This document shows, piece by piece, positions 14,348-44,506 of a DNA stretch of 64,000 nt. Source of the stretch: Dehalococcoidia bacterium (GTDB taxonomy: Bacteria; Chloroflexota; Dehalococcoidia; UBA2979); assembly GCA_965219085.1 (NCBI GenBank), contig OZ244720.1:736001-800000 (forward strand). Reading direction: 5' to 3'. How positions within the stretch are numbered: position 1 is the first letter of the stretch; the number at the start of each line of letters is the position of its first letter. The notes below the pieces were generated by a model that was not told the DNA's origin, did not search any database, and saw only the letters and a list, made by a program, of their open reading frames with translations. The position numbers were made by a program, and so were the translations under genes.

Positions 14348-15120
14348 TCAGGCGATGCGGCGTCGGGTGTAGACGGCCGCGCCCGCGACGAGCATGACGG
14401 CCGCGGTGAGCGCTGCCCACTGCCACGCGGCGGGCCCGCTGGTAGCGGTCACCAGCCCGGCGTTGCCGGTGTTGGGACGCGGCATGGTCTGCTGGACCAC
14501 CTCGATCGTGGCGGTCGCCTGCGTGCCGCTCACGAGGTCGAGCAGGCGGATCGTCTCGGTGGTGGCGACGCCGTGTCGACGTTGTCGACGCCGCGCGAGG
14601 GGTCGGGCTGGCCGCCGTCGAAGCCCGTGAACAGCCCGGTGTTCTCCTCGGTGCCGGCCTCGTAGGCTCGCAGCTCGATGGTCTGGCTGAGCGGCGTGTC
14701 GCCGTCGAAGAGCGCGACCGACTGCAGCCCGACGAAGCCGTCGTTCGTCGCGACGAGCATCTGCGCCGTGGGGAGCAGGTCACCAGGCTCGGCCGTCACC
14801 TCGAAGACTACCGTCGCGCCGCTCGCGGGGGCTGCGTCAATCTCGCCCGCGCCGAGCGCGGACACCGCCTCGGCAGGGTTGCCGATCTCGGCGATACGCT
14901 CGATGGCGAGCGACGCCTCGGCGTCGCGGGCCCAGAGCGCGCCGGAATCGGTGTGCACGAGCCAGGCCCCGGGACTGAGGATCTGCTCCGGGTCGCTCGC
15001 GTTGGTGATCGTCACCCGGAACGTCACCGGGCGGGCGGCCTCCGTGGTACTCGCGAGGCCGGACAGCATTGCCGCGGCCAGGGCGAGCACCAGGATCGCT
15101 GTGATGGGGGTACGGAACAT
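14348..15120 (-). pseudogene. spondin-domain surface protein with a frameshift near 14573
   Basis: signal peptide, LSPG, MLVATNDGF, YEAGTEEN; restoring one base joins it to the PNTGNAG-TM-RRR tail. Confidence 0.75.
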
Positions 15121-15195
15121 GTTGCACCCCTCCTTTCTCGCACCTTTCCAATACCTAGTCTCGCACATTTCAAGACCAAGTATCACACTGGGGCG

Positions 15196-15227
15196 AAAAA
15201 AAACGCGCCGGCCAAGAGTCGGCGCGT
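15196..15227 (-). terminator. Rho-independent terminator, probably the original terminator of the malic enzyme gene
   Basis: ACGCGCCGGC/GTCGGCGCGT stem with an A8 tract on + (U-tract on -). Confidence 0.75.
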
Positions 15228-15256
15228 CGGGCGATCGGATCGGAGTTGGCGCTGCT

Positions 15257-16438
15257 AGACCGTATGGAGTGACCGGCTCCGAGTTCGCAAACTCGCGGGT
15301 TACAGACGCGAGGCATGCAGAGCCGCATGCGAAAGGAGCCGGTCAGGAAGATGACTACCACATACGCAGGGATGGATGCACACGCGCGGGCGATCCACGT
15401 GGCGGTGCTGGCGCCGGGGGCCGAGCGGCCCGAGGAGTGGCAGCTGGCGAACGAGCCGAAGGCGGTGAAGCGGCTCGCGCAGCGCCTGCGGCGCATGGCG
15501 CCGGGGCCGCTCGTGGCCTGCTACGAGGCCGGGCCGGGCGGCTTCGCGCTGCAGCGCCGGCTGGAGGCCGAGGGCGTCGAATGCCGGGTGATCGCCCCGG
15601 CGCTGATCCCCAGGCGACCCGGCGACCGCGTCAAGACCGACCGTCGCGACGCACGGAAGCTCGCCGAGCTGCTGCGCGCGGACCTGCTCACGGCGGTGCA
15701 TCCCCCGACCATCGACCAGGAGGCGGTGCGCGACCTCTGCCGGGCGCGCGAGGACGCCGTGACCGACCGCACGCGGGCGCGCCACCGCCTGGCGAAGCTG
15801 CTGCTGCGGCGCGGCATCGCCTACGACGGGCGGAACTGGACGCTGCGGCACCGCCGCTGGCTGCTGACGCTGCGCTTCGAACACCCGGCCGCGCAGGCCA
15901 CCTTCGACGACTACCTGCGCGCGCTCGAGGGCGTGGAGGAGCGGCTGCGCACGCTGGAGCAGGAACTGGCCGCGTGTGCCGCCAGCGACGACTACCGCGA
16001 GGCGGTGGGGCTGCTGCGCTGCTTCCGCGGGGTCGACACGGTGACGGCGATGACGGTGCTGGCCGAACTCGGCGACGTCACGCGCTTCGGCAGCGCCCGG
16101 CAGCTGATGTCCTACCTCGGGCTGACGCCGAGCGAGCACAGCAGCGGGGCGCGCCAGCGGCGGGGGCCGATCACGAAGACAGGGAACAGCCACGTGCGCC
16201 GCATCCTGGTGGAGAGCGCCTGGCACTACCGCCACCCGCCGCGGGTCGGCGCAGCCCTGCGCAAGCGGCGGGAGGGCCAGCCGGGCTGGGCCGTGGTGCT
16301 GGCCGACCGGGCGCAGACCCGGCTCTATCGCCGCCACCGGCGGCTGGCCGCTCACGGCAAGCCGTCGGTCGTGGCGAACACCGCCGTCGCCCGCGAACTT
16401 GCGGGCTACCTGTGGGCGGTGCTGCGGCGTATCCCCGC
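15257..16438 (+). mobile_element. IS110/IS1111-type element copy 1, 3'-truncated (transposase from 15351)
   Basis: matches the 20325-21874 copy up to RRIP; DEDD motifs GMDAH/YEAG/KTDRRDA; right end missing. Confidence 0.9.
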
Positions 16439-16596
16439 CGGCCTCGACCTCCCGAACCATCTCCAGCCGGGCAGCCGGTGTCAGACGCGCGTTAGGATGT
16501 GCCACGAGAGGCTCCTCTCCTGCTCCTGGTGCGTTCGTGACACACACAGCAGCAGGCGGAGCCCCTCACCTGCAACAACCTACGTGGGAACTACAC
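16436..16596 (-). mobile_element. IS481-family left-end remnant
   Basis: TGTAGTTCCCACGTAGGTTGTTG end identical to that at 19252; N-terminus VAHPNARLTPAARLEMV; flanked by CTAG. Confidence 0.8.
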
Positions 16597-18075
<1,479 letters not shown>

Positions 18076-18287
18076 GTACTGCACTCCTGTAGCGCAGTGC
18101 GGGGCGGTGGCGCGTAATGTTGCGGCAGGTTTCCGACTGGCGCTAGTACCCCGCGCAGAGTTCGTCTGCGTTGCGGCCAACACGTGCTAGAATGCATGCG
18201 CTGGCCCCCGGAACGCCGACCGGGAAGCCACTCCCCTCTGGACGCCGAGTCGAATCGAGGCATGCACTCGTGAGAGGGAAGAACCAC

Positions 18288-18755
18288 GTGAGATCCTTGA
18301 ACATGCCGGGCGGTCGCCGCGGAGGCGGCGGTCTGGTCTTCGTGACGGTGGTCGCCGCTGCCGCGGTCGCCGTGTTCCTGTGGTGGCGACGCCGCCAGGA
18401 CGCACGGATGCGGGAAGCCGCCGAGACGCCGCAGGCGTGGGCGCCGCCCGCCGCGCCCGCGCCAGCCGCGCAACCCGAGCCCATGGCCGCTCCGGCCCAG
18501 CCCATGGCGGCTGCTCCAGCCGCGCCCGCGGCGCCGCCGATGGCGCCACCGGCGCCGGCCGCGCCACCGGCGCCGGCCGCCCCGCCGATGGCTCCTCCGC
18601 CAATGGCGGCGCCCATGCAGGCGCCGGCGGCGCAGCAGCCCGTGGCGGCGGCGGTCCCTAACGGGAACGGGCACCCGCCGATGGCTGCCGCCCCCGACGG
18701 CAGTGGCGTGCCGATGTATGCGCAACCGCTCGGAGCGATGCCCGTCGCCCGGTAG
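18288..18755 (+). CDS. single-pass membrane protein with Pro/Ala-rich tail
   Basis: RBS-like GAGAGGGA, TM segment then WWRRR, PMAAP repeats. Confidence 0.6.
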   Translation: MRSLNMPGGRRGGGGLVFVTVVAAAAVAVFLWWRRRQDARMREAAETPQAWAPPAAPAPAAQPEPMAAPAQPMAAAPAAPAAPPMAPPAPAAPPAPAAPPMAPPPMAAPMQAPAAQQPVAAAVPNGNGHPPMAAAPDGSGVPMYAQPLGAMPVAR

Positions 18756-18954
18756 CGGGCAAGCAGACCCTCAGGAACTGGTTCACGGCCTCGCTCGGCA
18801 CTCCGGGCGGGGCCGTTTTCTCGTATCGCAGCCCATTCGACGCGCGCCGGACACGACAGCGTGGGTCGCGCCCGACGGTGACCGGCCCGCCGAGCGCGGT
18901 CCGGATGCACGTATGACCGTGGGTGCGGGCGTTGGTATCCTCGGAGAGTCAGCA

Positions 18955-19030
18955 GCCCCCATCGTCTAGGGGACCAGGACGCCACCCTTTCAAGGTGGAA
19001 ACAGCGGTTCGAATCCGCTTGGGGGTACCA
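18955..19030 (+). tRNA. tRNA-Glu(TTC)
   Basis: GCCCCCA..TGGGGGT-ACCA acceptor, CCACC-CT-TTC-AA-GGTGG anticodon arm, GGTTCGAATCC. Confidence 0.97.
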
Positions 19031-19098
19031 AGGTTTTTAGGGGTTCCTGCAATTTACCGTTCGGTCGATCGCACGAAATGGGGCCATTTTGGGGCCAT

Positions 19099-19250
19099 CT
19101 ACTCAAGCATGTCGTCGAGCGCTTCGGCCGCCGCGTCCTGTTGGCCAGGCAGCACATGGGTGTAGACGTCGAGCGTGAACGCTGCACGAGAGTGCCCGAG
19201 CCGCTGCGCAACCGTCTTGGGGTCGACGCCTGCCCGGATCCATTGGCTAG
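19099..19250 (-). pseudogene. tyrosine integrase C-terminal remnant
   Basis: GVDPKTVAQRLGHSRAAFTLDVYTH; cut off by IS481. Confidence 0.85.
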
Positions 19251-19251
19251 C

Positions 19252-20321
19252 TGTAGTTCCCACGTAGGTTGTTGACACCTGCAGGGCGTCTTGAACCCTG
19301 CAGGGGTTGCTCGTGAAGGGAGCCTCCGGGAGAAGGTGTGAGTAACAAGCCAGCACCTTGCACCTGGAGGCTCCGATGCATCGTAACGCCCGACTGACCT
19401 TCCTCGCCCGCCGCACGATGGTGGAACGCATCGCCGCGGGCCGCGCGGTCGCGCACGTCGCCGCCGAGATGGGCGTCTCCCGTCCGACCGCCTACAAGTG
19501 GTGGCGACGCTGGCTGGAGGAGGGCGAGGCCGGTCTCGAGGACCGCCCCAGCCGCCCGCGACGCTCCCCGGCGCGTGTCCCGGCACGGCTGGAGCGCGCG
19601 ATCGAGCGCCTGCGCCGCCGCGAGAAGCTCGGTCCGGCACGCATCGGCTTCCGCCTCGGGATGCACGCCTCCACCGTCCACCGCGTGCTGTGCCGCCGCG
19701 GCCTCAACCGCCTCGCCTGGCTCGACCGCCCGAGCGGGCAGCGGATCCGCCGCCCCCGGCGCTACGAGCATGCCCGCCCGGGCGACCTGCTGCACATCGA
19801 CGTCAAGAAGCTGGGGCGCATGCCCCCGGGCGGCGGCTGGCGCGCCCACGGACGGGGCCAGGCGCCGCGCAGCCGCGCCGGCTACGCCTTCATCCACTCC
19901 GCCGTGGACGACCACACGCGCCTCGCCTACAGCGAGATCCTCGCGGACGAGCGCGCCGTCAGCGCAGCCGCCTTCCTGCAGCGGGCGTGGGCCTGGTTCG
20001 CCGAGCTCGGCATCGAGGTGCGGGCCGTGCTCACCGATAATGGCGGCGCCTACAAGAGCCGCCTGTTCAGCTCCGCCTGCCGCCTCAGCGGCGGGCGGGC
20101 GAAGCGGACCCGGCCCTACCGCCCGCAAACCAACGGCAAGGTCGAGCGCTTCCACCGCACGCTGCTCGAGGAGTGGGCCTACGTCCGCGTCTACCGCAGC
20201 GAGGCCGAACGCGCAGCCGCCCTCGGACCTTCGCTGCACCGCTACAATCATCACCGTTGCCACACCGCGATCGGAGGTGAACCCCCGATCAGCCGTGTCA
20301 ACAACGTCCCGGGACACTACA
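19252..20321 (+). mobile_element. IS481-family element (transposase 19376-20326)
   Basis: IRs TGTAGTTCCCACGTAGGTTGTTGACAC / TGTAGTGTCCCGGGACGTTGTTGACAC; HIDVKK, VLTDNG, NGKVERF. Confidence 0.93.
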
Positions 20322-20324
20322 CCT

Positions 20325-21874
20325 GATATGGAGTGACCGGCTGTCAAGCAGCACCGGCGGTGGTCGTGGCGATCCGGCTCCGGAACGGGGGGAGATGGAC
20401 GAACGAGGGCGCTGCTTCGACGACGTGTCACTCTGATATTCGCGGGTTGCCTGTGGCCTTGCCGCATGACCGTGCTTCGCCGGGAGGGGTCGCCGTCTAG
20501 CATCGCGGGTTGACGGCGCCGGGCGCCGCTGCCGCATAGGTGTACCGCGCATCCTCCTGAGCCTGCCCTCGCTCATCCACCCCCTCCTGCTCCGGAACGG
20601 CGTACCGCCGTCTCCGCCCTCGCCGCGGACCGGGCGCGTTGTATCAGGCCGCCGCCTGCTCCCGGGCGCCGGCCTTCGGCTCTCCCGCGGATGCGGGGAT
20701 ACGCCGCAGCACCGCCCACAGGTAGCCCGCAAGTTCGCGGGCGACGGCGGTGTTCGCCACGACCGACGGCTTGCCGTGAGCGGCCAGCCGCCGGTGGCGG
20801 CGATAGAGCCGGGTCTGCGCCCGGTCGGCCAGCACCACGGCCCAGCCCGGCTGGCCCTCCCGCCGCTTGCGCAGGGCTGCGCCGACCCGCGGCGGGTGGC
20901 GGTAGTGCCAGGCGCTCTCCACCAGGATGCGGCGCACGTGGCTGTTCCCTGTCTTCGTGATCGGCCCCCGCCGCTGGCGCGCCCCGCTGCTGTGCTCGCT
21001 CGGCGTCAGCCCGAGGTAGGACATCAGCTGCCGGGCGCTGCCGAAGCGCGTGACGTCGCCGAGTTCGGCCAGCACCGTCATCGCCGTCACCGTGTCGACC
21101 CCGCGGAAGCAGCGCAGCAGCCCCACCGCCTCGCGGTAGTCGTCGCTGGCGGCACACGCGGCCAGTTCCTGCTCCAGCGTGCGCAGCCGCTCCTCCACGC
21201 CCTCGAGCGCGCGCAGGTAGTCGTCGAAGGTGGCCTGCGCGGCCGGGTGTTCGAAGCGCAGCGTCAGCAGCCAGCGGCGGTGCCGCAGCGTCCAGTTCCG
21301 CCCGTCGTAGGCGATGCCGCGCCGCAGCAGCAGCTTCGCCAGGCGGTGGCGCGCCCGCGTGCGGTCGGTCACGGCGTCCTCGCGCGCCCGGCAGAGGTCG
21401 CGCACCGCCTCCTGGTCGATGGTCGGGGGATGCACCGCCGTGAGCAGGTCCGCGCGCAGCAGCTCGGCGAGCTTCCGTGCGTCGCGACGGTCGGTCTTGA
21501 CGCGGTCGCCGGGTCGCCTGGGGATCAGCGCCGGGGCGATCACCCGGCATTCGACGCCCTCGGCCTCCAGCCGGCGCTGCAGCGCGAAGCCGCCCGGCCC
21601 GGCCTCGTAGCAGGCCACGAGCGGCCCCGGCGCCATGCGCCGCAGGCGCTGCGCGAGCCGCTTCACCGCCTTCGGCTCGTTCGCCAGCTGCCACTCCTCG
21701 GGCCGCTCGGCCCCCGGCGCCAGCACCGCCACGTGGATCGCCCGCGCGTGTGCATCCATCCCTGCGTATGTGGTAGTCATCTTCCTGACCGGCTCCTTTC
21801 GCATGCGGCTCTGCATGCCTCGCGTCTGTAACCCGCGAGTTTGCGAACTCGGAGCCGGTCACTCCATACGGTCT
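20325..21874 (-). mobile_element. IS110/IS1111-type element copy 2, complete (transposase 20644-21780)
   Basis: subterminal IRs TATGGAGTGACCGG at both ends; CT core at 20323-24 and 21873-74; long non-coding right end. Confidence 0.92.
20400..20570 (-). ncRNA. putative bridge/seekRNA of the IS110 element (boundaries approximate)
   Basis: duplicated scaffold ATGCGGC..CAACCCGCG flanked by segments matching the donor junction and the target flanks. Confidence 0.75.
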
Positions 21875-21876
21875 AG

Positions 21877-23052
21877 GGATGGTCTGAACAACTCGCCTGA
21901 GCGGGTGAGCAGATGCGATCATGGGGCGACCCGGAGAGGGGCGGCCCATGCAGCAGCGTTCGTTCGGCAGCGTCGAGTACGAGCACAAGAAGGTCAAGAC
22001 GAGGCGGCAGGCGTTCCTCGAGCGCATGGACGGGCTCGTCCCCTGGGCTGAGCTGGAGCAGCGCATCGCGCCCGTCTACCCGAAGCGCGGCCGCGGACGC
22101 CGCCCCTACGCGCTGCGCGTGATGCTGCGCATCCACTGCCTGCAGCTCTGGTTCAACCTCAGCGACCCCGGCATGGAGCAGGAACTCTACGACTCCCGCT
22201 CGATGCTCGAGTTCGCCGGTCTCAGCCTCTCCGAGCCGATCCCCGATGAGACGACGATCCTCAACTTCCGCCACCTGCTGGAGCGCCATCAGCTGGGAAC
22301 GGCGCTGTTCGCGACGATCAACGCGCACCTGGCACGGCAGGGGCTGCAGGTGTGCGAGGGCACGATCGTGGACTCCACGATCATCAGCGCGCCGTCATCG
22401 ACGAAGAACCGCGAGCGTGCGCGCGACCCCGAGATGCACCAGACCAGCAAGGGCCGGCAGTGGTACTTCGGGATGAAGCTGCACGCCGGCACGGATGCGC
22501 GGACGGGGCTGGTCCACAGCGTGAGCACGACGGCGGCGAACGTCTCAGACGTGACCGAGGCGCATCGCCTCTTGCACGGCGGCGAGACGGAGGCGTGGGG
22601 CGATGCCGGCTACCAGGGAGTGGAGAAGCGCCCGGAGCACGCGGGGTCGGAGGTGAGCTGGCAGGTGGCGATGCGTCCGGGTCTCAGGCGGCAGCTGGCG
22701 CCGGGGGGCGAGGAGGCGCAGGCGGAGCGGCGCAAGGCCTCGGTGCGCGCCAAGGCTGAGCATCCGTTTCTCTACGTGAAGCGGCACTTCGGGTACGCGC
22801 AGGTCCGCTACCGGGGTCTTGAGAAGAACCGCCAGCGTCTCATGCTGCTGCTCGGTTTCACGAACCTGTTGCGAGCCGAGCCTCAGCTCGCCTGATCGCG
22901 GGAGCGCTGCGTCCGGAATCGCTCCCGCAGGCGAGCCCGCAGCGGAGTGGGAACGGGATCGCCCCCTGAACCGCGGCATCGGCCCCCGCAGCGCGGCTCG
23001 GCACGCCGATCGGCCCGCACCGCGCCCGATACGCCACCTGTTCAGACCTTCC
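21877..23052 (+). mobile_element. IS5-family element (transposase 21948-22895)
   Basis: IRs GGATGGTCTGAACA / GGAAGGTCTGAACA; CTAG duplication at 21873-76 and 23053-56; IPDETTILNFR, WYFGMKLH, GDAGYQG. Confidence 0.95.
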
Positions 23053-23289
23053 CTAGGTCATCGACGGGCTGGACACAGCAGCCCATGCTGCCATCGCAGC
23101 AGCGCCGACATGGCGACGCGGGCGTGCAAAAGGGGTCTTCCCGGTTCTACGTAATGCTCTCGTCCTGAGGCCCCCCGAGCGGGGGCCAGGGATCAGTCCT
23201 TGGGGGCTCCCGCAGCCACGCCGGAATGTCTCGCACCGCATGCGCCGCTGGTGGCCCAGAGCAACGGACCGCCCTGGGTGGACCCATTC

Positions 23290-23580
23290 GGGGACGACGA
23301 CCGCCAGACGTGGGCGGAGTGCCTGCGCGGCGAGGTCGCCGAGGGCTTCAGCCGCGTCGTCTTCGAGGGGGCAGCGTCGACGACCTCGTGGCCTGCTCGG
23401 AGCGCCTGCAGGTGACGGCCCTCTACGCCCTGCACGACGGCGGGTGGGTCTCCTGCATCCTCGGCGCGCCGGAGTGGGTGAACGCCGAGTTCCGGGAGTT
23501 GTTCGCCGAGGGCGTTCCCTCGATCACGCCGCTCGTCGTCAGGAGTGAGGGGCCTCCGGAAGCCAACTGCCTGAGCTTGG
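23290..23580 (+). pseudogene. orphan domain fragment of a lost protein
   Basis: CLRGEVAEGFSRVVFEG then frameshift to GSVDDLVAC..LGAPEWVNAEFRELFAEG; no start. Confidence 0.4.
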
Positions 23581-23624
23581 CGGGTTCGAGCGCTGCAAGA
23601 GTTGCTCAAACGCAGCCCGCGTGG

Positions 23625-24281
23625 TCAGTCATCCAACAGACCGTTCCGCACGGCCCAGACCACGATCTCCTGCTTCGTGGCAACGCCGAGCTTGTTCTGA
23701 ATCGTGTAGATGGCGTTCCTGATGGTGACGGGCTTGACTCCCCTGGCCTCCGCAATCGCGCTGTATGACGTGCCCCGGGAGAACGCCGCCAGTATCTCCC
23801 GCTCCCTCCGCGTCAGCTCGTCGTGCTGCTCGTCAACTTCCGCCCCGCTTCGTATCCGGCCGAATACCCGCCTCACCACCTCGTTCGGCACATGCATCTC
23901 ACCGGCAGCCACGACCTTCACCGTGCTCAGGAGCTGGTCCATTCCGGATGTCTTCTGAAGATAGCCGGTCGCACCGGCGGCCAGCGCCTCGATCACCGCG
24001 TCCTCCTCGGTTGAGGCGGTCAGCATGATCACTCGTGTGTCGGGCGCGGAATCCATGATCTCCCGGCACGCCTCCACGCCGTCCTTCCCGGGCATCATGA
24101 CGTCCATGACGACCACGTCGGGTGACAGTTCTGAGGCTGCTCGCACCGCCTCCACTCCGTCCCTGGCCTGTCCGACCACCTCGAACTCCTCAGTCTGCTC
24201 GAGCATCGACTGGAGACCTTCCAGCATGATCGAATGGTCGTCGACGAGCAGGACCCTGATGCGGCTAGACTCTGTCGACAC
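23625..24281 (-). CDS. NarL/LuxR-family response regulator
   Basis: VLLVDDH, VMDVMMP, ELTRREREIL HTH. Confidence 0.93.
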   Translation of the reverse strand: MSTESSRIRVLLVDDHSIMLEGLQSMLEQTEEFEVVGQARDGVEAVRAASELSPDVVVMDVMMPGKDGVEACREIMDSAPDTRVIMLTASTEEDAVIEALAAGATGYLQKTSGMDQLLSTVKVVAAGEMHVPNEVVRRVFGRIRSGAEVDEQHDELTRREREILAAFSRGTSYSAIAEARGVKPVTIRNAIYTIQNKLGVATKQEIVVWAVRNGLLDD

Positions 24282-24282
24282 G

Positions 24283-25539
24283 CTACGCCTCCTGTACCTC
24301 GCGACCCAACGGCATCACGCAGGTGACGCACGCGCCACCATCCGGCCCCCGGGGCTCGACGATGAGGCGTCCGCCCAGGCGCTCGGCGCCCGCGCGCATG
24401 TTTGCGAAGCCGTGGCCGCGCTCCTCGTAGTCGCCGGGAAGTCCCGGCCCGTCGTCCGACACCGAGAGCCTGATCTCACGCCGTCCGAAGTCGAGCCCGA
24501 TCAGCACCCTGCTCGCGTCGGCATGGCGGAAGGCGTTGGTGAGGGCGTTGTGGGCGATCGTGAACAGCACACTCCTCGCCTCGATCGGAAGAGGCGGCTC
24601 CACGCCGTTCTGCGTCAGCTCCGCCGGCACCGAGGTAACGGATGTGAACGTCGCAACGTGGGAGTCCAGGGTCCTGCCCAGCTCCCTGCCGTCGAATATG
24701 CGGCCCATGTCTATCGGGTGTCTCAGCTGCCAGATGGCGGTCTTCGACAGCAGGGAGGTCGCTTCGAGCCTGGCGCTGAGCTCCTCATTGGAGTCCCCGG
24801 CAAGCCGCCTGGCGGCATCGATACCCAGGCCGATCAGGTACGCGGACTGCGCCGTCGTGTCGTGAACGGACTGGGAGAGCTCGATCCGCTCGCGTTGAAG
24901 TACCTGCTCCCGTTCCGCCGCGGCCCTCCACCTGGTCCGCTCGAAGCCGACGATCAGGTTGACCGATGCAGCCACCGCGTACATGACGAAGAGTCTGGCC
25001 AGGAGGGGCTTCTCGTCGCGTACCCCTGTGTCGATTCCGTCCCCAACCGAGAGGCTAATCGCAAGATAGAGGAGGGCCACGCTCGTCACACAGGCCATGG
25101 TCAGCCTGAACGACGTGAAGACCACCGCGTACCCGGCCAGCGGGGGGTAGTAGAGCAGGTGCAGGAAGTAGTGGTTGAACCCTCCCCCGACCACCGTGGC
25201 GCCCGAGATCATAGTGAGATCCATCACGGCGAGCGCGACGAGCCAGCGCCAGGTGATGGCCGTGTTCGCGAGCCGGTAGTGCGTGTATCCGTTGAACGCG
25301 ACCAGCAGCAGGGCCAGCGGTACATACACGACGTACATCTCCGGCCAACCCACAGGCCGGTAGGCCAGCTGCACGAGCACGAACGCGACCACGAACCAGT
25401 GCAGCCAGACCAGGACGGTCGCGACGTATCTCAGCCCGTCCGGGTCGAGCCGGATGAGCGCCGAGCCGCTGAGCCGGACGGCGCTGGAGGGTGTCCCGAT
25501 CGGGTCCAAGCCCCGGCTCTGGCGGTGCGCCTGAGACAT
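24283..25539 (-). CDS. membrane sensor histidine kinase (HisKA_3)
   Basis: several TM segments, VHDTTAQ, NALTNAFRHA, DDGPG, GHGFANM. Confidence 0.9.
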   Translation of the reverse strand: MSQAHRQSRGLDPIGTPSSAVRLSGSALIRLDPDGLRYVATVLVWLHWFVVAFVLVQLAYRPVGWPEMYVVYVPLALLLVAFNGYTHYRLANTAITWRWLVALAVMDLTMISGATVVGGGFNHYFLHLLYYPPLAGYAVVFTSFRLTMACVTSVALLYLAISLSVGDGIDTGVRDEKPLLARLFVMYAVAASVNLIVGFERTRWRAAAEREQVLQRERIELSQSVHDTTAQSAYLIGLGIDAARRLAGDSNEELSARLEATSLLSKTAIWQLRHPIDMGRIFDGRELGRTLDSHVATFTSVTSVPAELTQNGVEPPLPIEARSVLFTIAHNALTNAFRHADASRVLIGLDFGRREIRLSVSDDGPGLPGDYEERGHGFANMRAGAERLGGRLIVEPRGPDGGACVTCVMPLGREVQEA

Positions 25540-26044
25540 GTTCTCCCCGGGATGCACACGAGAGCAGGGAGCATCTAGCTGGTCCAAGCAGTGCACCCCT
25601 GCCTGCAAATCTCGCTGACGCGGGTTGAGTCCACAAGAGCAGGCGTACCTGTCTCAGTCGCAGAAGGGCACTCCCTCAGAGCAAACAAACTTGCCTCCTC
25701 ATTGTGTCGCTCGGCACTTACCAGTAGCTCGAGCGATCTTCACGATCGACCGGACACGGAGTGGATCGTTTCGTCCAACCAGCCGGACCAGGGGTAGGCG
25801 CGCGGACACCCCAGACCGTGCGTGGAAGGCATTCAGATGGCGCTCGGCAGACCAGTCGATGCACCTGTAGGCGCGGGCGGAACGCCGGCCCCGGCCGTCG
25901 TTGCGCCGCTCGGTGTGGCCACCGTGCACGTCGAAGCACTGACCCCCTTTTTATGTCATCTATTCGTCGGCTGTCAATGACGCCTGCTGCGTCCGATCCC
26001 GCCAGGCCGCACCTCGGCACCGCGCCTGCTGGAGTAGTGCGCCA

Positions 26045-29000
26045 TGGCCTCTAGCCGACAGGCCGCCGCTCGCGCCGTCCGGAACGTCCCCCTGACGTGG
26101 GCCCGTCGCACCGTCCCATCTCGCTGGTGCTGGCTGCGCTCGCCTTCACATGCATGCTGTCGGGCACCCGCACGAGTTCGCTGACGGCCTGAGGCTACAG
26201 CTGGTAGGTCAGCGGCATGGGTGAGCTGAGCGAGGACACGTTCAGCTGGGGGGACCAGACGATCGAGGTGAAGCCGGTGTTGCTGCAGTCCGGCCACCTG
26301 CTGCTGAGCGTAGCGCCGGAGCCGGCCGACGGGTTCGTGCTCGACATGGACGGAACGGGGTTTGCCTCGGCCGACGCCACGTTGCGCCGGAATGACACGT
26401 TGATTGGGTACCTCTGGACGGCCCCGGACCTGAGCTGGGCGAAGGACGACACGGTCGCGCTGCGCCTGAGCTGGGTGGAGGCGGAGGAGGACCCCGCGTC
26501 GGCGCAGGAAGTGGTGACGGTGGTGAAGGATGCGACGGCGACACCCACACCGACACCCACGCCGACCCCCACACCCACGCCAACGCCCACGGCCCCGCCG
26601 GCCCGGCCCACGGGACTCTCCGCCACGGCCTCCCCTGGCGCGATCGCGCTGAGCTGGGATGACCCGTCCGACGCGACCATCACGCACTACGAGGTGTTCC
26701 GGCGGGACACCACGATCCACGCGCTCGGGGAGTTCATCACGCTCGAGGCGAACACGGGCTCGGCGGCCACCACCTACACGGAAGTGAGCGTGGAGCCAGA
26801 GCGCAAGTACGTGTACCGGGTGAAGGCCGTGAACGCCCACAGCGCCAGCCAGTGGTCGAGCTTCGCCAGCGCCACCACCCCGCCCGCGCCCGTCCCGCCT
26901 GCCACCGAGGACCTGGCCGCAGCCGGCCTCACCGCCACGCTTCCCGAAGGCGGCGGCGTGGCCCTGAGCTGGACCGCTCCGGTGGAGGACGCCGATAGCG
27001 TCACCGGCTACGAGGTCCTGCGCGCGGTGGGCAACGGGGAGCTGACCACCCTGGTCTCCGACACCGGGAACACAGCCACCAGCTACACCGACGCGACCGC
27101 GACCGCGACCGCGACCGCGACCGAGGCGGGCGAGACCTATGCCTCCCAGGTGAAGGCGATCCGGGGCGAGGAGCGCAGTCAGCCATCGGGCGAGGCCCAG
27201 GTGCAGGTCCCCCACGCCGCCGCCGACCTCGCCCCCAGCGGGCTGACCGCCACGCTGGTCGAAGGCGGCGGCATGAGCCTGAGCTGGACCGCGCCGGCGG
27301 AGGACGCCGCCAGCGTCAGCGGCTACGAGATCCTGCGCGCCGTGGGCGACGGAGCGCTGACCACGGTGGTGTCCGACACCGGGAACACGGCCACCGCCTA
27401 CACGGACGCCACCGCGACCGAGGGGGGCCAGACCTACACCTACGAGGTGAAGGCGATCCGGGGCGAGGAGCGCAGCCAGGCCTCGGGCGAGGCCCGGGTC
27501 CAGGTCCCCCATGACGCCGTTGACCGCGCCCCCAGCGGTCTGACCGCCACGCTTGTCGAAGGCGGCGGCGTGAGCCTGACATGGGCCGCCCCGGCGGAGG
27601 ACGCCGACAGCGTCAGCAGCTACGAGATCCTGCGCGCCGTGGGCGACGGCGAGCCGGCCACGCTCGTGGCCGACACCAGTTCCACGGCTAGCACGTACGC
27701 CGACGCCACGGCGACCGAGGCGGGGGAGACCTACGCCTACCGTGTGAAGGCCATCCGGGACGAGGACCGCAGCGGGGCGTCCGGCGAGGCCCAGGTCCAG
27801 ATCCCCCATGCCGCCGTTGACCGCGCCCCCAGCGGCCTCGTCGCCACGCTGGTCGAAGGCGGCGGGGTGAGCCTGAGCTGGACGGCCCCGGCGGAGGACG
27901 CCGACAGCGTGACCGGCTACGAGATCCTGCGCGCTAAGGGCCAAGGCGGGCTGGCCACGCTGGTCGCCGACACCCAGTCCACGTGACCACCCATACGGAC
28001 GCTGCGGTTACGGAGGCCGGCGAGTCCTACACCTACGAGGTCAAGGCCATCCACGGCACCGAGAAGAGCGACGCCTCCAACCAGGCCGTGGTGGCCGTGC
28101 CACAGGCCGCCGAAGATCTGGCTCCCTCCAACCTGACAGCCGCGGTTGCCGAAGGCGGCGGCGTGACTCTGAGCTGGACCGCCCCTGCGCAGGACGCCGA
28201 CGGCGTCAGCGGCTACGAGATCCTGCGCGCCGTGGGCGGGGGAGAGCTGACCACCCTCGTGTCCGACACCGAGTCCACCGACGCGACCTACACCGACGTC
28301 ACCGCGACCGGGGCGGGCGAGACCTACGCCTACCAGGTGAAGGCCGTCCGCGGCGAGGACCGCAGCGAGCCCTCGGCCGAAGCTTCGGTCGCCCTGCTCG
28401 CGGCCGCCGTCGCGGCGTGCGAGTTCGATGCCGAGGGCGGTGATCTGCCCGCGGACAGGAGCACGGCCTGCACGCTCGAGGTCGGCGGTTCCGTGCGCGG
28501 CGAGCGCGGAGCGGCCAGCGATGTCGACTGGGTCCGGGTCGACCTGCAAGCCCTCGCCACCTACCAGTTCGACATGCGCGGCAAGTCGACCGGCTCCTGG
28601 CAGCTGGTCGACGGCGTGCCCGCCTTCGTCTCCGTGGGCACACTGGAGGATCCAAAGCTGCTGGGCATCTACGACGCCAGCGGCGCCCTGGTCGCGGGCA
28701 CGGACTCGGAGGTGGCGGGCACGGGCAAGGACAGCCGCATCGCGTCGTTCAGTCCCGCCGCCGACGGCGTCTATTACATCTCCGCCTCGGCCGAGGGCGC
28801 CTGGACGGGAACCTACGAACTCTCGCTGACGGTGACGGCCGGCACGCACGTGGCGGATCTGGCGTTGCTCGCCCCGACCGGCCTGACCGCCACCATTGCC
28901 GACGGCGGCGGATACACGCTGACGTGGACGGCCCCCGCGGAGGCGGCCGATTCGGTCACCGGCTACGAGATCCTGCGCGCCGTCGGCGAGGGAGCGCTGA

Positions 29001-30565
29001 GGACCCTCGTCGCCGACACCCGGTCTACGGCGACCGCCTACACGGACGCGACCGCCAGTCAACCGGGGACGAGCTACGCCTACCGCGCGATCGCCCTGCG
29101 CGACGGGGTGAAGAGCCAGCAGTCCAACGAGGCATCGGTCGACCTGCCGGTACGCGGCGGCGTGACGCTGACCTGCCCCGCGACCGACACCGATTGCAGC
29201 GGGACGGGACCGGCGGACCTGGCGGTCACGAAGACGGCCGCCGGGCTGCGGCTGAGCTGGAACCCGCCGCCGGAACCGACGCTGACCGGCGCCGAGACGA
29301 CGGTGCTGCAGTACCAGATCATGCGCTCGCCGGGCGATGACGACTACGGCCTCATGACCCGCGTCGACGCCGATGCGCGCAGCTACCTCGACACCACGGC
29401 GCGGCGCGGCCAGTACCGCTGCCAGGTGCGCGCGATCTATTTCGTGAACGAGGCCTGCGCCTCGCTGCGTGACATCGATGTGGACCTGATGATCGGCGGG
29501 ACCGAGTACGAGCCGGTCGACGGGCTGAGGTCGGACGGCACGACGCTGTGGGCCAGCGACCGTAGCAGGGCCGCCATTCTTGCGTTCAGGCTGTCAGACG
29601 GCGTCCGCGACGGTAGCAGGGACATCATCGCCGAGGACAACTCAGACCCCCGTGGTCTGTGGGGGCGCGAGGGCACGCTCTGGGCGCTGACCGAGTCCGG
29701 GTCCGGGAGCACGAAGATCACGCTGGATGGCTACTCCCTCACCGACGGGACATTCGGTAACCGCACGGCGCGGCTCACGCTGGGGCCCAAGGCGGACACC
29801 ACCGGTGCGCCGACATCGGGATACGGACTGTGGGCGGACGAGGACACCTTCTGGATATCGGAGGTGCCGTCCTCGTCCCTCTTCGCCTACGACTGGGCCG
29901 ACAGCGGGACGCTGGCCAGGAACCCGGGGAAGGAGCTGAGCCCGAGCATATCGTACGCCAGCCTCTCCACATCGATGTGGGGCGATGGGACGACGATGTG
30001 GATGGCCACCTCGCTCTCCGGGTCTTGAGAAGAACCGCTAGCGTCTCATGCTGCTGCTCGGCTTCACGAACCTGTTGCGAGCCGAGCCTCAGCTCGCCTG
30101 ATCGCGGGAGCGCTGCGTCCGAAATCGCTCCCGCAGGCGAGCCCGCAGCGGAATGGGAACGGGATCGCCCCCTGAACCGCGGCATCGGCCCCCGCAGCGC
30201 GGCTCGGGACGCCGATCGGCCCGCACCGCGCCCGATACGCCACCTGTTCAGACCTTCCCTAACGTACGCGGGGGCGAGCGTCGCCGCGGGGAGCTTCGCC
30301 GCCGCAACCGCGCTCGACACGACGTGGACGGCGCCGGCGGCGACCACCGCCGATCAAGAGATCACGCTGACGCTGACAGTGACCGACGACAGCAGCCCCA
30401 CCAACAGCGCGGCGAGCACGGTGGTCGTGATCGTCAGGCCGGATCGGGCGCCGCTGGTGGAGGTCAGTCCAACGGCGGCGATCGTCGCCGGCGTCGCCCC
30501 CGAGGTGAGCCTGGAGGCGACGGTCACGGACCACGAGACCGACAGCGACGACCTGACTTACTTAA
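26045..30565 (+). pseudogene. giant FN3-repeat/PPC surface protein, frameshifted (~27984) and IS-disrupted
   Basis: about 8 LSWTAP..GYEILR..YEVKAI repeats, PPC-like domain, propeller-like segment, Ig/PKD-like piece at 30263-30563. Confidence 0.8.
30020..30258 (+). mobile_element. IS5 right-end remnant
   Basis: near-identical to 22814-23052, ends TGTTCAGACCTTCC followed by CTAA. Confidence 0.9.
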
Positions 30566-32194
30566 GCCCTGATCCACCGAAGAAGAGCGCGCGAGGGGCT
30601 GCGGTTGGGTGCTCCGCTGTAGCTGGGACAATGGGTTTTGAGAATTCACGTCACAGCCACAGGGAGCACCCATTCGATGCTAGCAGCGAGTAACCCCGAG
30701 CGGATAGACATCGCCTCAGGCGACGACCGCCTCGTGGACCACGCGGGCCTGCTGCTCCCCGCCACGCTCGCTGGCCGGCTCGGCCTCCGTGCACTGGCGG
30801 ACGCCCACCTCGACCTCGGTGACGCAGCGGGGCGCGCGAACGCCGGCGACAAGCTGCTGACCCTGGTCGCCTCGGCGCTCGCGGGCGGCGACTGCATCGA
30901 CGACGCCGCTGCGTTGCGCGCCGGCGGGACGGCGAGCGTGCTGGCTTGCACGGTCAAGGCGCCGTCCACCCTGGGCACGTTCTTGCGCAGCTTCCGCTGG
31001 GGCCACGTCCGCCAGCTCGACCGCGTCAGCCGCGCATTGCTCGCCCGCGCATGGGCGGCCGGGGCGGGACCCGGCGCGGCGCCGTTCACGATCGACCTCG
31101 ACTCGACGATCTGTGAGACCTACGGCCTGGCGAAGGAGGGCGCCCGCCACCACGGCTACACGGGCGTGCACGGCTACCACCCGCTGCTCGCCGTTGCGGC
31201 CGGGACGGGTGACGTGCTGATGGCGCGACTGCGCGAGGGCCGCGCCAACACCGCCCGCGGCGCCGCCCACTTCCTGCGTGAGACGGTGGCGCGGGTCCGC
31301 GACGCCGGGGCGAGCGGGCAGCTCACGGTGCGCGCCGACAGCGGCTCCTACAACCACGCGGTCGTCGCCGTCTGCCGCAAGCAGGATGTCCGCTTCTCGG
31401 TCACGATCCGCCAGCAGCCGAGCGTGCGTAGGCTGATCGAGGCGATACCGCAAGCGGACTGGACGCCGATCCCGTACTGGCTGCCGGGCGGCGCCGATGT
31501 CGCCGAGACGACCTACACGCCGTTCCAGCACACGGGGGACGCCAGCGCGGTCCGGCTCATCGTGCGGCGCGTCAAGCCGGCGCCCGGCTCACAGCTCGTA
31601 CAGCTACCACGCCTTCATCAGCGACCGCGCGGGGGAGATGATGGAGCTCGAGGCGGACCATCGCCGTCACGCCGAGGTCGAGAACGCGATCCGCGACCTC
31701 AAGTACGGCGTCGGGCTCAACCATCTCCCCTCGGGCCGCTTCGCCGCGAACGCGGCGTGGCTCGCGGTGCAGGTGATCGCGCACAACCTCGCCCGCTGGA
31801 CGGCACGGCTCGGGCTCGGCGAGGGAATCGTCACCACCAGGACGCTCAGGCGGCGCTATTTCGCCCTCGCCGGACGGCTCACCCACTCGGCACGGCGCTG
31901 GACCCTGCACCTCCCCAGGCGCTGGCCCTGGGCCGGTCAGCTGGCAGCCGCGCTCGCGCGACTACGGGCGATACCGCTCCCGGCCTGACGCCCGCTCACA
32001 GCGCCGGCCCGGGTCCGAGGCTCGCGCCAGCATGCCCGCGCACGCCTCGCGCTCCCCAGCTCCCGCGCCCTCAGCGCCCCCGAGCTACGCTGAGCGACGG
32101 CTCATGGCTCCGGCCGGCGAACACCGACACACCTGCCGAACTCTCCGGCATACCGGCATCCCGCCCCCTCAAGCCTCGATCGGTGTATTCGGGC
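30566..32194 (+). mobile_element. IS1380-family element with frameshifted transposase (~30677-31988)
   Basis: IRs GCCCTGATCCACCGA / GCCCGAATACACCGA; IDLDST, GYHPL, VRADSG, ENAIRDLK. Confidence 0.85.
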
Positions 32195-32196
32195 TT

Positions 32197-32890
32197 AGCA
32201 GCACAGCTCCAGCAGCGCGCTCGACCGGCGTCGCGAGGCGAGTGGCATCCGCGCACGCGGCGGCCAGCGCCGAGGCGCGGGCGCCCGCTCCGCGCTCCGG
32301 CACGCGCAGCCGGTCGGCCCTGACGACCATCTCCGCGAGGTAGGTCCGCGTGTAGGCCGCGCCCGAGGCCTCGGAGTCGCCCATCGTCATCTCGAGGAAA
32401 CCCCTGAGCGTCGTCCTGAGCGACTGGGGCGCGCCGATGCACCGCAGGTAGTCGCCGAAGGTCTCCTCCCCGTCGAGCTCCGCGAGGCGGCTCCCGCTGG
32501 CGAAACCGAGGGACTGCCGCTCGGCGAACAGCCCCCGGAACAGCCGGGCGGCGGGCCGGGGCGCACGGCGTGAGAGCAGGCCCAACGCCCGCTGCCGGGA
32601 GGTTGCGGAGCAGGTTGGCCGGGGAGAGGCGGGGCGTCATCGTCACCCAGCGGCCGCCGCGGTACCAGCCGAGCCGCATCTTCGACGGAAGGAGCGGCAG
32701 ACCGAGTTCGCCGCAGATGCGGAAGGCGACATCGTAGGAGGAGCAGAAGAAGTCGGCGCCGGTGTCGATGGAGAAGCCGTGCACCTCGTCGCTGCGGAGG
32801 CGCCCGCCCACTCGGTCGCCAGCCTCGAGCAGGAGCACTTCGAGACCGCGCCGCCTGAGGGTGTAGGCGGCGGCCAGCCCACATACAGCG
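32197..32890 (-). pseudogene. FAD-dependent amine/protoporphyrinogen oxidase-like fragment
   Basis: GLAAAY..LLEAGDRVGGRLRS..IDTGA; frameshifts; truncated by IS1380. Confidence 0.7.
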
Positions 32891-32945
32891 AGTGTATCTG
32901 CGAGCGGGTATCAATCTATACGACCTCTCGACCGACTGCCCCCTG

Positions 32946-34655
32946 CTATTCCCTATCCTTCAGGAAGTCTGACAGGCCGTCCATAGTGATCGTGGCCCGG
33001 CCGCCAGTTGCATGATAGAAATTGCTGGCTCCCTGGAGCAACATGTGGTCACGATCACCTGGGTGGCTTTGCCAGGATACGTCGTAGCTCAAGCGGTCCA
33101 ATATCGCGGGGGTCGCCGAATAATCCGTACCGACCAGCAAGACTACTGCAGCGCGAAAGTCCTTCTGAGCCTTGGAAGTCTCGGGAACTCGTGGCCCATG
33201 CTCAGCGATGATGTCATCAATCGTATACGCCTCGAACCCACTGGCGGTGAACACACGATACCCATTGTCATCCTCAATGACATTGCCTTCCTCGCCCCAC
33301 AGCCATTCGCCGTTCACCGCAATTCGGAAGTCCGGGACGTCCTCTGGAGGTATGAGGCCCGCCAGATACAACTCTATGGGGCAGTACACGTAGAGACTTG
33401 GGCTGAATTCGTGTGAATACCTCCCGTCACCGAGATCTATCATCGTGGAAATGTTATACCCGTCCAGAATGCAGTGGTCGTTGATGAATCCCCAATGTGG
33501 ATAGGGTGGCACGACGAAGTTCGCCCACCGATGCATTAACTCGTGGAGAAGAACACCATTGACAAAGTCTCCCCCCCAACTGTAATCGTAAGTATTAATG
33601 TAGATCACACCCTGAAGCTCTTTCGCGGACTCCCATCTCTGGCCTTCGGCGAAAATCAGCTGCCCAACTCCCTTTACATCGTTCTTTACCCCAACGTAGT
33701 AGGCACCGTGAGGAACACCCGGCTCAAGCCGGTCACTGGTCAAGTTGGCCACAAATACTAGAAAATCGAACTCATCGTTGAAGTATTCATAGAAACGTGC
33801 TGCGTATTCTGTCAACGGCACATCACGTCCACCATAGGCGAGGTCTTCCTCGACGGGTAGGACGAACACATTGTCGTTGTATATCTGCGGGCCTGCAACA
33901 GCGATAGACGGAGGGACGGGCGTGGGCGTGGGCGTAGGGACGGGTGTGGGCGTTGCAGCAGGGACGGGCGTGGCCGTGGGCGTAGGGACGGGTGTGGGCG
34001 TTGCAGCAGGGACGGGCGTGGCCGTGGGCGTCAGCGTTGGTTCTGGCGTGGGAGTTGCGGTCGGGCGTGCCGTGGGCGTAGGGACGGGTGTAGGCGTTGC
34101 AGCAGGGACGGGCGTGGCCGTGGGCGTCAGCGTTGGTTCTGGCGTGGGAGTTGCGGTCGGGCGTGCCGTGGGCGTAGGGACGGGTGTAGGCGTTGCAGCA
34201 GGGACGGGCGTGGCCGTGGAGGTCGGGACAGCGGTGGGCCTTGCAGTAGGTACGGGCGTGGCCGTGGGCGTCAGCGTTGGTTCTGGCGTGGGAGTTGCGG
34301 TCGGAGTGGCGGTCGGCGCGGTCGGTGTCGGGGTCGGCGTGTCGGTCGGGATGGGCGTAGGAGTCGGCGTTGCCGTAGATGCAGCGGTCGGTGTGTCGAT
34401 TGGTGAGGGCGTGGGGGTCGCCGTTGCGGTCGGTGTCGGTTCGCGGGTAGTCGCCTCGGTGGGCGTCACAAGGGGGGCTGACGCTTCCTCCGACTCGGAC
34501 CTACAGGCGACAGCGACGAGCACGAGCAAGACGCCCACCAGACCAGGGACGGAACGTACCGCTAGAGTTCGTAGCGGCGAACTCCCCGGGCGGGGGCGTG
34601 GCTTCGCCAGTTGTATCTTCGCCCCAAGCATTCGACGGGCCTGTTGGCTCCTCAT
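32946..34655 (-). CDS. lipoprotein with Pro/Thr linker and zincin metalloprotease-like domain
   Basis: LVAVAC lipobox, PT repeats, [13 protein letters not shown]. Confidence 0.75.
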
Positions 34656-36745: not shown

Positions 36746-36769
36746 GCATGCCTATGATCCTCCTCATGC

Positions 36770-41905: not shown

Positions 41906-41987
41906 CACGATGGTCCCAAACTTCTCTGCGTTTCTTCGCGTGAATGTCCTCTCCCTCGCCCGAGGACTCTCATCAGCGATGGTCTCA

Positions 41988-44449: not shown

Positions 44450-44506
44450 GGACCGTATGGAGTGACCGGCCCCGAGTTCGCAAACTCGCGGGTCATAGAC
44501 GCGAGG
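44450..44506 (+). mobile_element. IS110 left-end remnant
   Basis: GACCGTATGGAGTGACCGGCCCCGAGTTCGCAAACTCGCGGG nearly identical to 15258-15313. Confidence 0.8.

Follow-up and report, generated by a model that had tools for sequence, protein, structure and literature searches.

An IS1111-type insertion sequence probably guided by RNA to the junctions that IS481-family elements create in a Dehalococcoidia genome

The subject of this work is an insertion sequence (IS), here called ISX, found in a 64,000-nucleotide stretch of DNA (the window; positions 736,001 to 800,000 of contig OZ244720.1, assembly GCA_965219085.1) from a Dehalococcoidia bacterium of the phylum Chloroflexota, whose genome is a single contig of 3.31 Mb with 69.8% G+C. 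ISX is very probably an RNA-guided element of the IS1111 type whose guides aim at the sequence CT-AG-GTGTA, in which the hyphens set off the core dinucleotide AG. Since this 9-mer arises almost only when an IS481-family element, whose end is G-TGTA, inserts at CTAG, the ends of IS481 elements would serve as landing pads for ISX. Comparison of the copies supports such targeting in this genome, where it is not absolute. Positions given below are those of the window unless they are called genome positions.

The intact copy in the window, copy A, occupies 20325-21872 on the minus strand and is 1548 bp long, or 1550 bp with one AG core included. It starts with ACCGTATGGAGTGACCGG and finishes with CCGGTCACTCCATATC, with an AG dinucleotide at both sides. 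The left end is ACCGTATGG, with its first base at 21872 and CT-AG ahead of it, and the right end is CCATATC, with its last C at 20325. The DEDD transposase gene (20644-21816, minus strand) encodes 390 amino acids from the first ATG or 378 from the ATG at 21780, and the protein matches Pfam PF01548 (DEDD_Tnp_IS110, 73 bits) and PF02371 (80 bits) as well as NCBIfam NF033542, "IS110 family RNA-guided transposase" (256 bits, cut-off 140). Its motif YLGLTPSEHSSG (GLTPSEHSSG) fits the C-terminal GL-P----S(T)G motif given for IS1111 transposases (PMC11187229). According to the same source, the inverted repeats of the IS1111 group are subterminal and measure about 11-17 bp, the ends extending beyond them by 7 (or 6) bp on the left and by 3 bp on the right; the hallmark of the group is a long non-coding region 3' of the transposase gene. 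ISX carries a perfect 16-bp inverted repeat, AGCCGGTCACTCCATA on the right (20327-20342, minus strand) and TATGGAGTGACCGGCT on the left (21853-21868, minus strand), located 4 nt in from the left end and 2 nt in from the right end; the pair ATGGAGTGACCGG/CCGGTCACTCCAT falls within it. Counted as by Siddiquee et al., the extensions are 7 nt on the left (AGACCGT, one core included) and 3 nt on the right (ATC). The non-coding DNA measures 319 nt 3' of the stop codon (20325-20643) versus 56-92 nt 5' of the start codon. On the basis of the domain matches, the subterminal repeats with their extensions, the 3' non-coding region and the motif, the sequence places ISX in the IS1111 group of the IS110 family.

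The 319 nt 3' of the gene appear to encode an RNA of the seekRNA/bridge type with two internal-loop modules, the first for the target and the second for the donor. Guide coordinates and strings are all read on the minus strand. In the target-binding module (20483-20557, minus strand), delimited by an RNAalifold consensus and pair counts, an outer stem GGAGG/CCUCC and a second stem CGC/GCG are predicted to lead to a 10x10 internal loop, which holds both target guides and is followed by an inner stem UGCGG/CCGCG and a hairpin. The 5' target guide TACACCTA (20544-20537) complements the top strand of T-AG-GTGTA, that is, the core and the IS481 tip, and the 3' target guide TGCTAG (20502-20497) is identical in sense to TGCT-AG, the left flank followed by the core, and complements the bottom strand; this is the guide order described for IS1111 elements (PMC11187229). 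In the donor-binding module (20418-20482, minus strand), a closing stem CGGCG/CGUCG holds the donor guides around an equivalent inner stem. The 5' donor guide ACGGTC (20473-20468) complements G-ACCGT, the last core base and the left end, and the 3' donor guide ATATCAGA (20439-20432) has the same sense as the ATATC right end, AG and the first left-end base. Both guide pairs surround one scaffold, (A)TGCGGC...CAACCCGCG(A). An initial annotation, made from the sequence of this stretch, had proposed four guide strings around a common scaffold, a first loop specifying TGCT-AG-GTGTA and a second matching the element's own circle junction, ATATC-AG-ACCGT. Strings and scaffold are correct base for base, the two strings of the first loop do spell that target, and the left and right ends of copy A agree with the donor reading. 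The interpretation of the first loop as target and the second as donor gains support from the fold and from at least nine covarying guide classes.

The consensus fold was computed with RNAalifold on 12 variants, and a covariance model was built from the same alignment. The model matches 47 of 56 related loci, and in those that could be oriented the RNA lies directly 3' of the transposase gene; the titles of the matching records name metagenome-assembled genomes (MAGs) of Chloroflexota, Planctomycetota, Acidobacteriota and Bacillota. Double changes occur at 33 of the 40 consensus pairs, and 92.7% of cells are paired, versus 81.6% in shuffles and 25-47% with slid partners, all from an alignment fitted to the model, so that the structure is favoured. 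The single-sequence fold of 20322-20643 (-155.2 kcal/mol, z = -2.47, with 1 of 100 shuffles equally stable) is weak taken alone, and its long-range pairs were discarded.

A BLAST search of the genome identified seven copies or fragments of ISX: copies A to E, an orphan left end and a distant left-end fragment. Copy B, the second full copy, has 2 differences from A over 1549 positions, and the transposases of the two are identical. Both intact copies adjoin IS481-type repeat tips, and both lie at CT-AG|GTGTA. To the right of copy A, AG (20324-20323) is followed by GTGTAGTGTCCCGGGAC, giving AG-GTGTAGTGTCCCGGGACGTTGTTGAC, the inverted-repeat tip of an IS481-family element (IS481-a, 19251-20322, plus strand; NCBIfam NF033577, 328 bits; Pfam LZ_Tnp_IS481 and rve). 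The right half of the ISX target is supplied by the right-hand repeat tip of IS481-a, GTGTAGTG (minus strand, 20322-20315), and a CTAG lies at the other end of IS481-a, at 19247-19250. To the right of copy B, AG-GTGTAACGTCCACAGACGTTACAC-CTGTAGTGTCCCGGGACACTACAC-CTAGG forms two miniature palindromes built of IS481 repeat tips. The left flanks are CCATCC-CT-AG for copy A, where the guide is matched at CTAG only, and CAGACCATCC-CT-AG for copy B. The CAGACCATCC stretch, 10-12 nt of it shared to the left of A and B, was considered as a part of ISX or of its target and ruled out, as it is the terminal repeat of an IS5-family element. Copies A and B are independent insertions into one type of site, CT-AG then GTGTA, since their right flanks diverge past 5 nt and the neighbouring IS5 elements have opposite orientations.

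Copy C (15259-16438, plus strand) covers element positions 1 to about 1180-1184, lacks the guide RNA region and forms a 1184-nt inverted repeat with copy A at 100% identity. It is preceded by TGCT-AG (15253-15258; GCGCTGCT-AG) and fused to about 160 nt of a second IS481 element (IS481-b, 16439-16596, plus strand), of which the antisense start of the transposase gene and a repeat tip remain, with CTAG next to it (16597-16600) and in the same orientation relative to ISX as in copy A. This arrangement would fit insertion at TGCT-AG-GTGTA and a deletion afterwards. The two older variants, D (at 89% identity) and E (at 95%, and internally deleted), are each broken by a 1507-bp insertion. Copy E carries the guide TACAGCTA and is located at GGT-AG-CTGTAC within an IS1380-family transposase gene (NF033539, 335 bits), and the corresponding empty site is present in eight uninterrupted copies of that gene. 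When A, B, D and E are aligned, variation falls on the columns of the target guides, and those of the donor guides are constant.

The number of available sites was estimated from three IS481-type tip sequences, which occur 15 times genome-wide. They are preceded by CTAG-C (8 occurrences), CTAG-A (1), CTAG-G (3) or ATATC-AG-G (2, copies A and B), and one lies within the tandem palindromes. Thus five tips have a present or former CTAG-G and two of these five bear ISX, versus none of the nine preceded by CTAG-C or CTAG-A. The 9-mer itself, CTAGGTGTA, is found at four unoccupied and two filled sites, for an order-1 Markov expectation of 1.64, and five of the six (the two filled sites and three of the empty ones) are IS481-type tips. 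As the initial annotation had stated, the right flank of copy A is an IS481 terminus, its left flank matches CTAG only, and copy C is preceded by TGCT-AG. Its larger proposal, that the element is programmed for the CTAG/TGTA junction made by IS481, is supported in this genome, with caveats: it agrees with both intact copies and with five of the six sites, and has to be narrowed to tips preceded by G, with the left guide matched only at CT in the intact copies and four sites empty. The check that it suggested, whether the flanks of all genomic copies are IS481 ends, gives such ends for A, for B and, as a fusion to a remnant, for C; copy E lies in the IS1380 gene, and copy D has flanks that its guides do not match.

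Guides and flanks also change together in related elements. Of the 61 related genomes searched, 17, the window's own counted, match the non-coding region, and 46 metagenome contigs share the right end. In a test that ignored the scaffold, the right flank of an element (core plus 5 nt, reverse-complemented, as a 7-mer) was found in its own non-coding region for 29 of 53 distinct element/flank records, drawn from this genome, from relatives and from metagenomes, versus 55 of 2556 mismatched controls (2.2%), in which the flanks of other records were used. Among the 24 misses are elements that are interrupted or truncated or that differ by one mismatch. The relatives are not independent, many TACAGCTA copies lying in one repeated IS1380 context with which they were possibly copied along. 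There are at least nine natural guide classes in which the 5' target guide changes along with the right flank. Besides TACACCTA, with T-AG-GTGTA, they include TACAGCTA with T-AG-CTGTA (14 distinct records in related genomes) and CTCACCCT with AG-GGTGAG (5 of 5 distinct records). Metagenome contigs provide ATATCGCT with AG-CGATA, ATATCACT with AG-TGATA, ATACCGCT with AG-CGGT, CCGTTCCTA with T-AG-GAAC, GAACCTA with T-AG-GTTC and GCTGCTA with T-AG-CAGC, and a family with 71% identical transposase provides GGACACTA with T-AG-TGTCC and GACCTCTA with T-AG-AGGTC. Transposases that are nearly identical (95%) bear different guides and are found at different flanks. The donor guides follow the element ends in the same way: ACGGTC occurs with the left end ACCGT and, in diverged families, AGGGTC with ACCCT and ACTGTC with ACAGT (the latter in the 71% family), and one relative pairs a 3' donor guide ATACAAGA with a right end ...CCATACA-AG.

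The guides of ISX are themselves found in other genomes. TACACCTA/TGCTAG is present in two loci from MAG records labelled Chloroflexota (L076 and L096), whose transposases are 82% and 71% identical to that of ISX, and both elements are situated at CT-AG|AG-GTGTA; the right flank of L076 continues with a 15-nt GTGTAGTAACTTCAC and then CTAG. The 26-nt target-loop stretch with the TACACCTA guide had no exact match in the metagenome contigs. A further element (L070), whose guide TACAGCTA has a one-base change, adjoins CT-AG-C-TGTACTGAC, the end of an IS481-family element (42% identity, tblastn), and in another (L073) the target T-AG-TGTCCTGAGTTGTTAACGCG is the CTAG-flanked end of a 1.2-kb unit repeated in the window's genome. 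To judge from these flanks, landing on CTAG and the tip of a repeated element is a recurring habit of the ISX lineage, and other habits exist too.

A number of observations weigh against the reading proposed here, some concerning the RNA and others the target. The ISX transposase, at 378-390 amino acids, is longer than the 330-350 cited for IS1111 (PMC11187229), a range that is typical and not defining. The initial annotation had suggested a check of whether the guides fold into loops or stems: they lie in internal loops of the RNAalifold consensus, except that helix 7 pairs GUGAC with GUCAU, which forms the 3' portion of the 5' donor guide, so that this guide is not wholly in a loop. Our own covariance model recognises related loci as described above; no Rfam 15 family was found on the non-coding region (scan of 15000-27000, E up to 1), the only matches being one tRNA and one weak unrelated hit. 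A scan of 20250-21950 revealed no sigma-70-like promoter or terminator. A TTGACA located 17 nt from the right end is kept in relatives, and no -10-like hexamer follows it across the presumed circle junction, as judged by eye from the sequence. Public sequencing data were compared as assembled contigs from 4 of 24 runs. In two RNA runs, contigs covered the transposase gene alone, at depths of 4.5 and up to 7 (<8), and none covered the non-coding region. In a further run (X1), variant letters at 20500, 20502, 20537, 20538, 20543 and 20544, all guide positions, spell the guides CTCACCCT/CGTTAG. One X1 contig links 20322 to 21873 and misses 1550 nt (2 nt ambiguous), as an empty site would; it may come from a paralogous empty IS5-CTAG-IS481 junction at genome position 1670610 and is no proof of excision.

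As to the target, copies A and B have CCCT on the left, and the TGCT of the 3' guide is fully matched by copy C alone. Across the records in general, too, left flanks match the 3' guide weakly (6-mers in 6 of 29 records versus 3.3% of controls, 5-mers in 15 of 29 versus 20.7%). In the CTCACCCT class (L005, L021, L028, L042 and L043; relative G015) the 5' guide pairs one base nearer the inner stem than in the other classes while the 3' guide keeps its register, so that either a one-base shift is tolerated by the loop or the model of the pairing is not complete. Targets are limited to the five of the 15 tips that have a G in front. The four empty CTAGGTGTA sites (genome positions 752592, 1428198, 1670620 and 3084388) include a perfect 11-mer, TGCTAGGTGTA, at genome position 1428196. 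Neither L076 nor L096 has an IS481 transposase gene in its 2.1-kb right flank (tblastn), and close relatives of ISX aim elsewhere, at the IS1380 transposase gene, GGTGAGG repeats and other sequences.

Several of these points would be expected if ISX were RNA-guided but its link to IS481 incidental, with a short motif close to CT-AG-GTGTA as target and CTAG sites acting as hot spots on which IS5, IS481 and ISX pile up, with no dependence on or adaptation to IS481. The target is indeed just 9-11 nt long; one of the six CTAGGTGTA sites, at genome position 1428198 (that of the 11-mer), has no clear IS481 end, being continued by TGTAG...GTTGCAGG, which may be a degenerate repeat; and IS5 and IS481 stack at a single CTAG without ISX, for example at 1670610. 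We nevertheless consider this explanation unlikely: the tips account for nearly all of the CTAGGTGTA sites, against the small number expected for such a 9-mer, the guides TACACCTA/TGCTAG have been kept between transposases as distant as those of L076 and L096, which argues for a stable, repeated target, and three other lineages, L070 and L073 among them, lie at CTAG and the end of a repeated element.

The order of arrival could also have been the reverse, IS481 and IS5 inserting beside a resident ISX at the CTAG of its junctions. The left junction, CT-AG|ACCGT, does regenerate a CTAG, and in both intact copies an IS5-family element is found exactly there, with CTAG on both sides. In the window this is a plus-strand element at 21877-23052 (NCBIfam NF033581, 331 bits; CTAG on both its own sides) whose end GGATGGTCTGAA adjoins the CTAG of the junction. 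The element is 1180 bp long, is present in about 14 full copies with 4-bp YTAR duplications, and meets copies A and B with opposite ends. Given the regenerated CTAG, these IS5 copies may have arrived later than ISX. The right junction, ATATC-AG-G, offers IS481 no CTAG, from which it follows that IS481 was there before ISX, and the IS5-CTAG-IS481 junction at 1670610, without ISX, is identical to the reconstructed empty site of copy A; the reverse order is thus very improbable. Least probable of all is a choice of target by the transposase protein alone, with guide-like matches due to chance or hitch-hiking. The RNA is deduced here from sequence, and the many TACAGCTA copies in one IS1380 context would suit such a view, but guide classes that change together with their flanks, the excess of own-flank matches over controls and the 95%-identical transposases with different guides at different flanks all speak against it, as does the experimentally established RNA guidance of the family (PMC11187229, PMC11208160).

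The reading that we prefer, RNA-guided insertion of ISX at IS481 ends, builds on the anatomy of ISX, the loop structure, the covariation of guides with flanks and with ends, and the positions of all copies, which come from the sequence and its comparison. By analogy with tested relatives, we infer that the transposase binds an RNA expressed from ISX, that the element forms a circle and that the site is chosen by base pairing and not by protein contact. The donor loop would hold the abutted ends of the excised ISX, at a circle junction ATATC-AG-ACCGT, and the target loop would pair with both strands around AG. Strand exchange at the shared AG would then place ISX between CT-AG and AG-GTGTA, in one orientation and with no duplication. 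The weak left-hand match of A and B agrees with a 2026 preprint which describes half-matched substrates as able to recombine in IS621.

A second IS110-family element, ISY (1507 bp, with a 419-amino-acid transposase matching NF033542 at 158 bits and 27% identical to that of ISX), is always found within donor-loop DNA of the ISX type, between CAACCCG and CGA(A/G)TATCAGAG. The site can be written CAACCCG|CGAATATC or GATATTCG|CGGGTTGCC. In this genome ISY interrupts copies D and E, at genome positions 1083100-1084606 and 3174362-3175868, outside the window. Its position is constant in both copies here, in the four full copies of one relative and in two cut-off copies of another (the loci concerned include L029, L176, L179, L182, L184, L177 and L180), and its hosts represent at least four different ISX backbones. 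The 5' non-coding region of ISY holds GATATTCGC, the left half of this site. From these sequences ISY looks like an IS that targets the guide-RNA gene of another IS. A loose contig end of run X1 lies at window position 20443. We are evenly divided over a wider, three-tier hierarchy of RNA-guided IS, in which IS481 makes CT-AG-GTGTA, ISX reads this junction and ISY aims at the donor-loop DNA of ISX, disabling ISX and exploiting its most conserved sequence as a safe multi-copy site, with single-base changes such as TACACCTA versus TACAGCTA retargeting ISX between host IS.

Other copies and loci have features of their own. Copy D (genome positions 3172964-3175988) has the target guides AAGCACTG and CATCAG, which fit neither of its flanks, the left one being GGCT-CG. 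On its right, from ISY through the right end of ISX and into about 845 nt of flanking DNA, of which 743 nt are free of mismatches, it is nearly identical to copy E, and by its sequence copy D looks like a recombinant. The orphan ISX left end (44452-44506, plus strand) is 55 nt long and 93% identical, with the left flank CATCC-CT-GG. It shares CATCCCT with the left flanks of A and B, and the DNA further upstream is unique and has no IS5 end. Six loci with 61% transposase identity (L023, L049, L050, L078, L081 and L089) have two full guide-RNA units in tandem, about 380-500 nt apart, and the target loop of the second unit has ATATCAGA, the ISX donor-type sequence, on its 3' side.

In the window, IS481-a, ISX and the IS5-family element form a stack (19100-23056) with CTAG at 19247-19250, CT-AG at 21876-21873 and CTAG after 23052, and the stack seems to occupy an originally single CTAG. 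It lies beside a tRNA gene (18955-19027) and a 50-amino-acid fragment from the C terminus of a tyrosine recombinase (PF00589, at 22 bits short of the cut-off), of which no N-terminal part was recognised beyond the stack on inspection of the list of open reading frames, without a family scan. Further along, 26500-42600 contains long tandem-repeat arrays of several families (D1-D9), whose periods are 12-24, 111, 129 and about 300 nt; they probably encode repetitive parts of large surface proteins.

IS4321 and IS5075 reportedly already target the terminal repeats of transposons. ISX resembles them as an IS1111-type element with subterminal inverted repeats that enters the terminal repeat of another element at one set position and in one orientation, the number of such insertions at IS481 tips being small (2-3 copies here and L070). 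It differs in its host, an IS481-family IS instead of what is said to be a Tn3-family transposon, in its setting, uncultured Chloroflexota, and in a target which spans both the IS481 tip G-TGTA and the CTAG site and exists only after IS481 has inserted. Unlike IS621, whose core is CT, ISX has an AG core and long subterminal inverted repeats. It shares with the IS621 bridge RNA (Durrant et al. 2024, PMC11208160) the two internal loops for target and donor, each with two guides that address opposite strands, overlap at the core dinucleotide and covary across relatives; in ISX the RNA lies 3' of the gene and its 5' side pairs with the top strand, an order that is reversed in IS621.

The closest parallels are the seekRNAs of ISEc11, ISKpn4, ISPst6 and ISPa11 as described by Siddiquee et al. 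(2024, PMC11187229). As in ISX, these derive from the non-coding region 3' of the transposase gene and are RNAs of 70-100 nt in which the complement of the top strand lies 5' of that of the bottom strand, the two overlapping in the target; the 7-nt left and 3-nt right extensions and the natural reprogramming between relatives are also shared. That study names a short linear site, attC sites and repetitive extragenic palindromic (REP) sequences as targets, whereas that of ISX is an IS481 junction, and ISX also departs from that account in the length of its transposase. Those seekRNAs were purified, while the ISX RNA is read from DNA. In the literature collection searched, judged by title and abstract, no paper dealt with IS1111-type elements that aim at IS481 ends or with nested IS110 targeting, and none on IS110 insertion into other IS or terminal repeats came closer; the supplements of PMC11187229 and PMC11208160, with targets of hundreds of IS, may include similar cases. 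New here are the IS481 host, a target that straddles the host tip and its insertion site, the phylum and the natural series of guides. The mechanism itself is already known from seekRNA and bridge RNA, to which ISX adds a member and an ecological twist and no new principle.

ISX provides a clean natural example, from an uncultured phylum, of the choice of a safe site by seekRNA/bridge-RNA elements. Its target arises only after another IS has inserted, so that one element, as it spreads, sets the niche of the next. The natural guide classes, at least nine and some of them one base apart, could guide the engineering of IS1111-type recombinases, which have been less studied than IS621.

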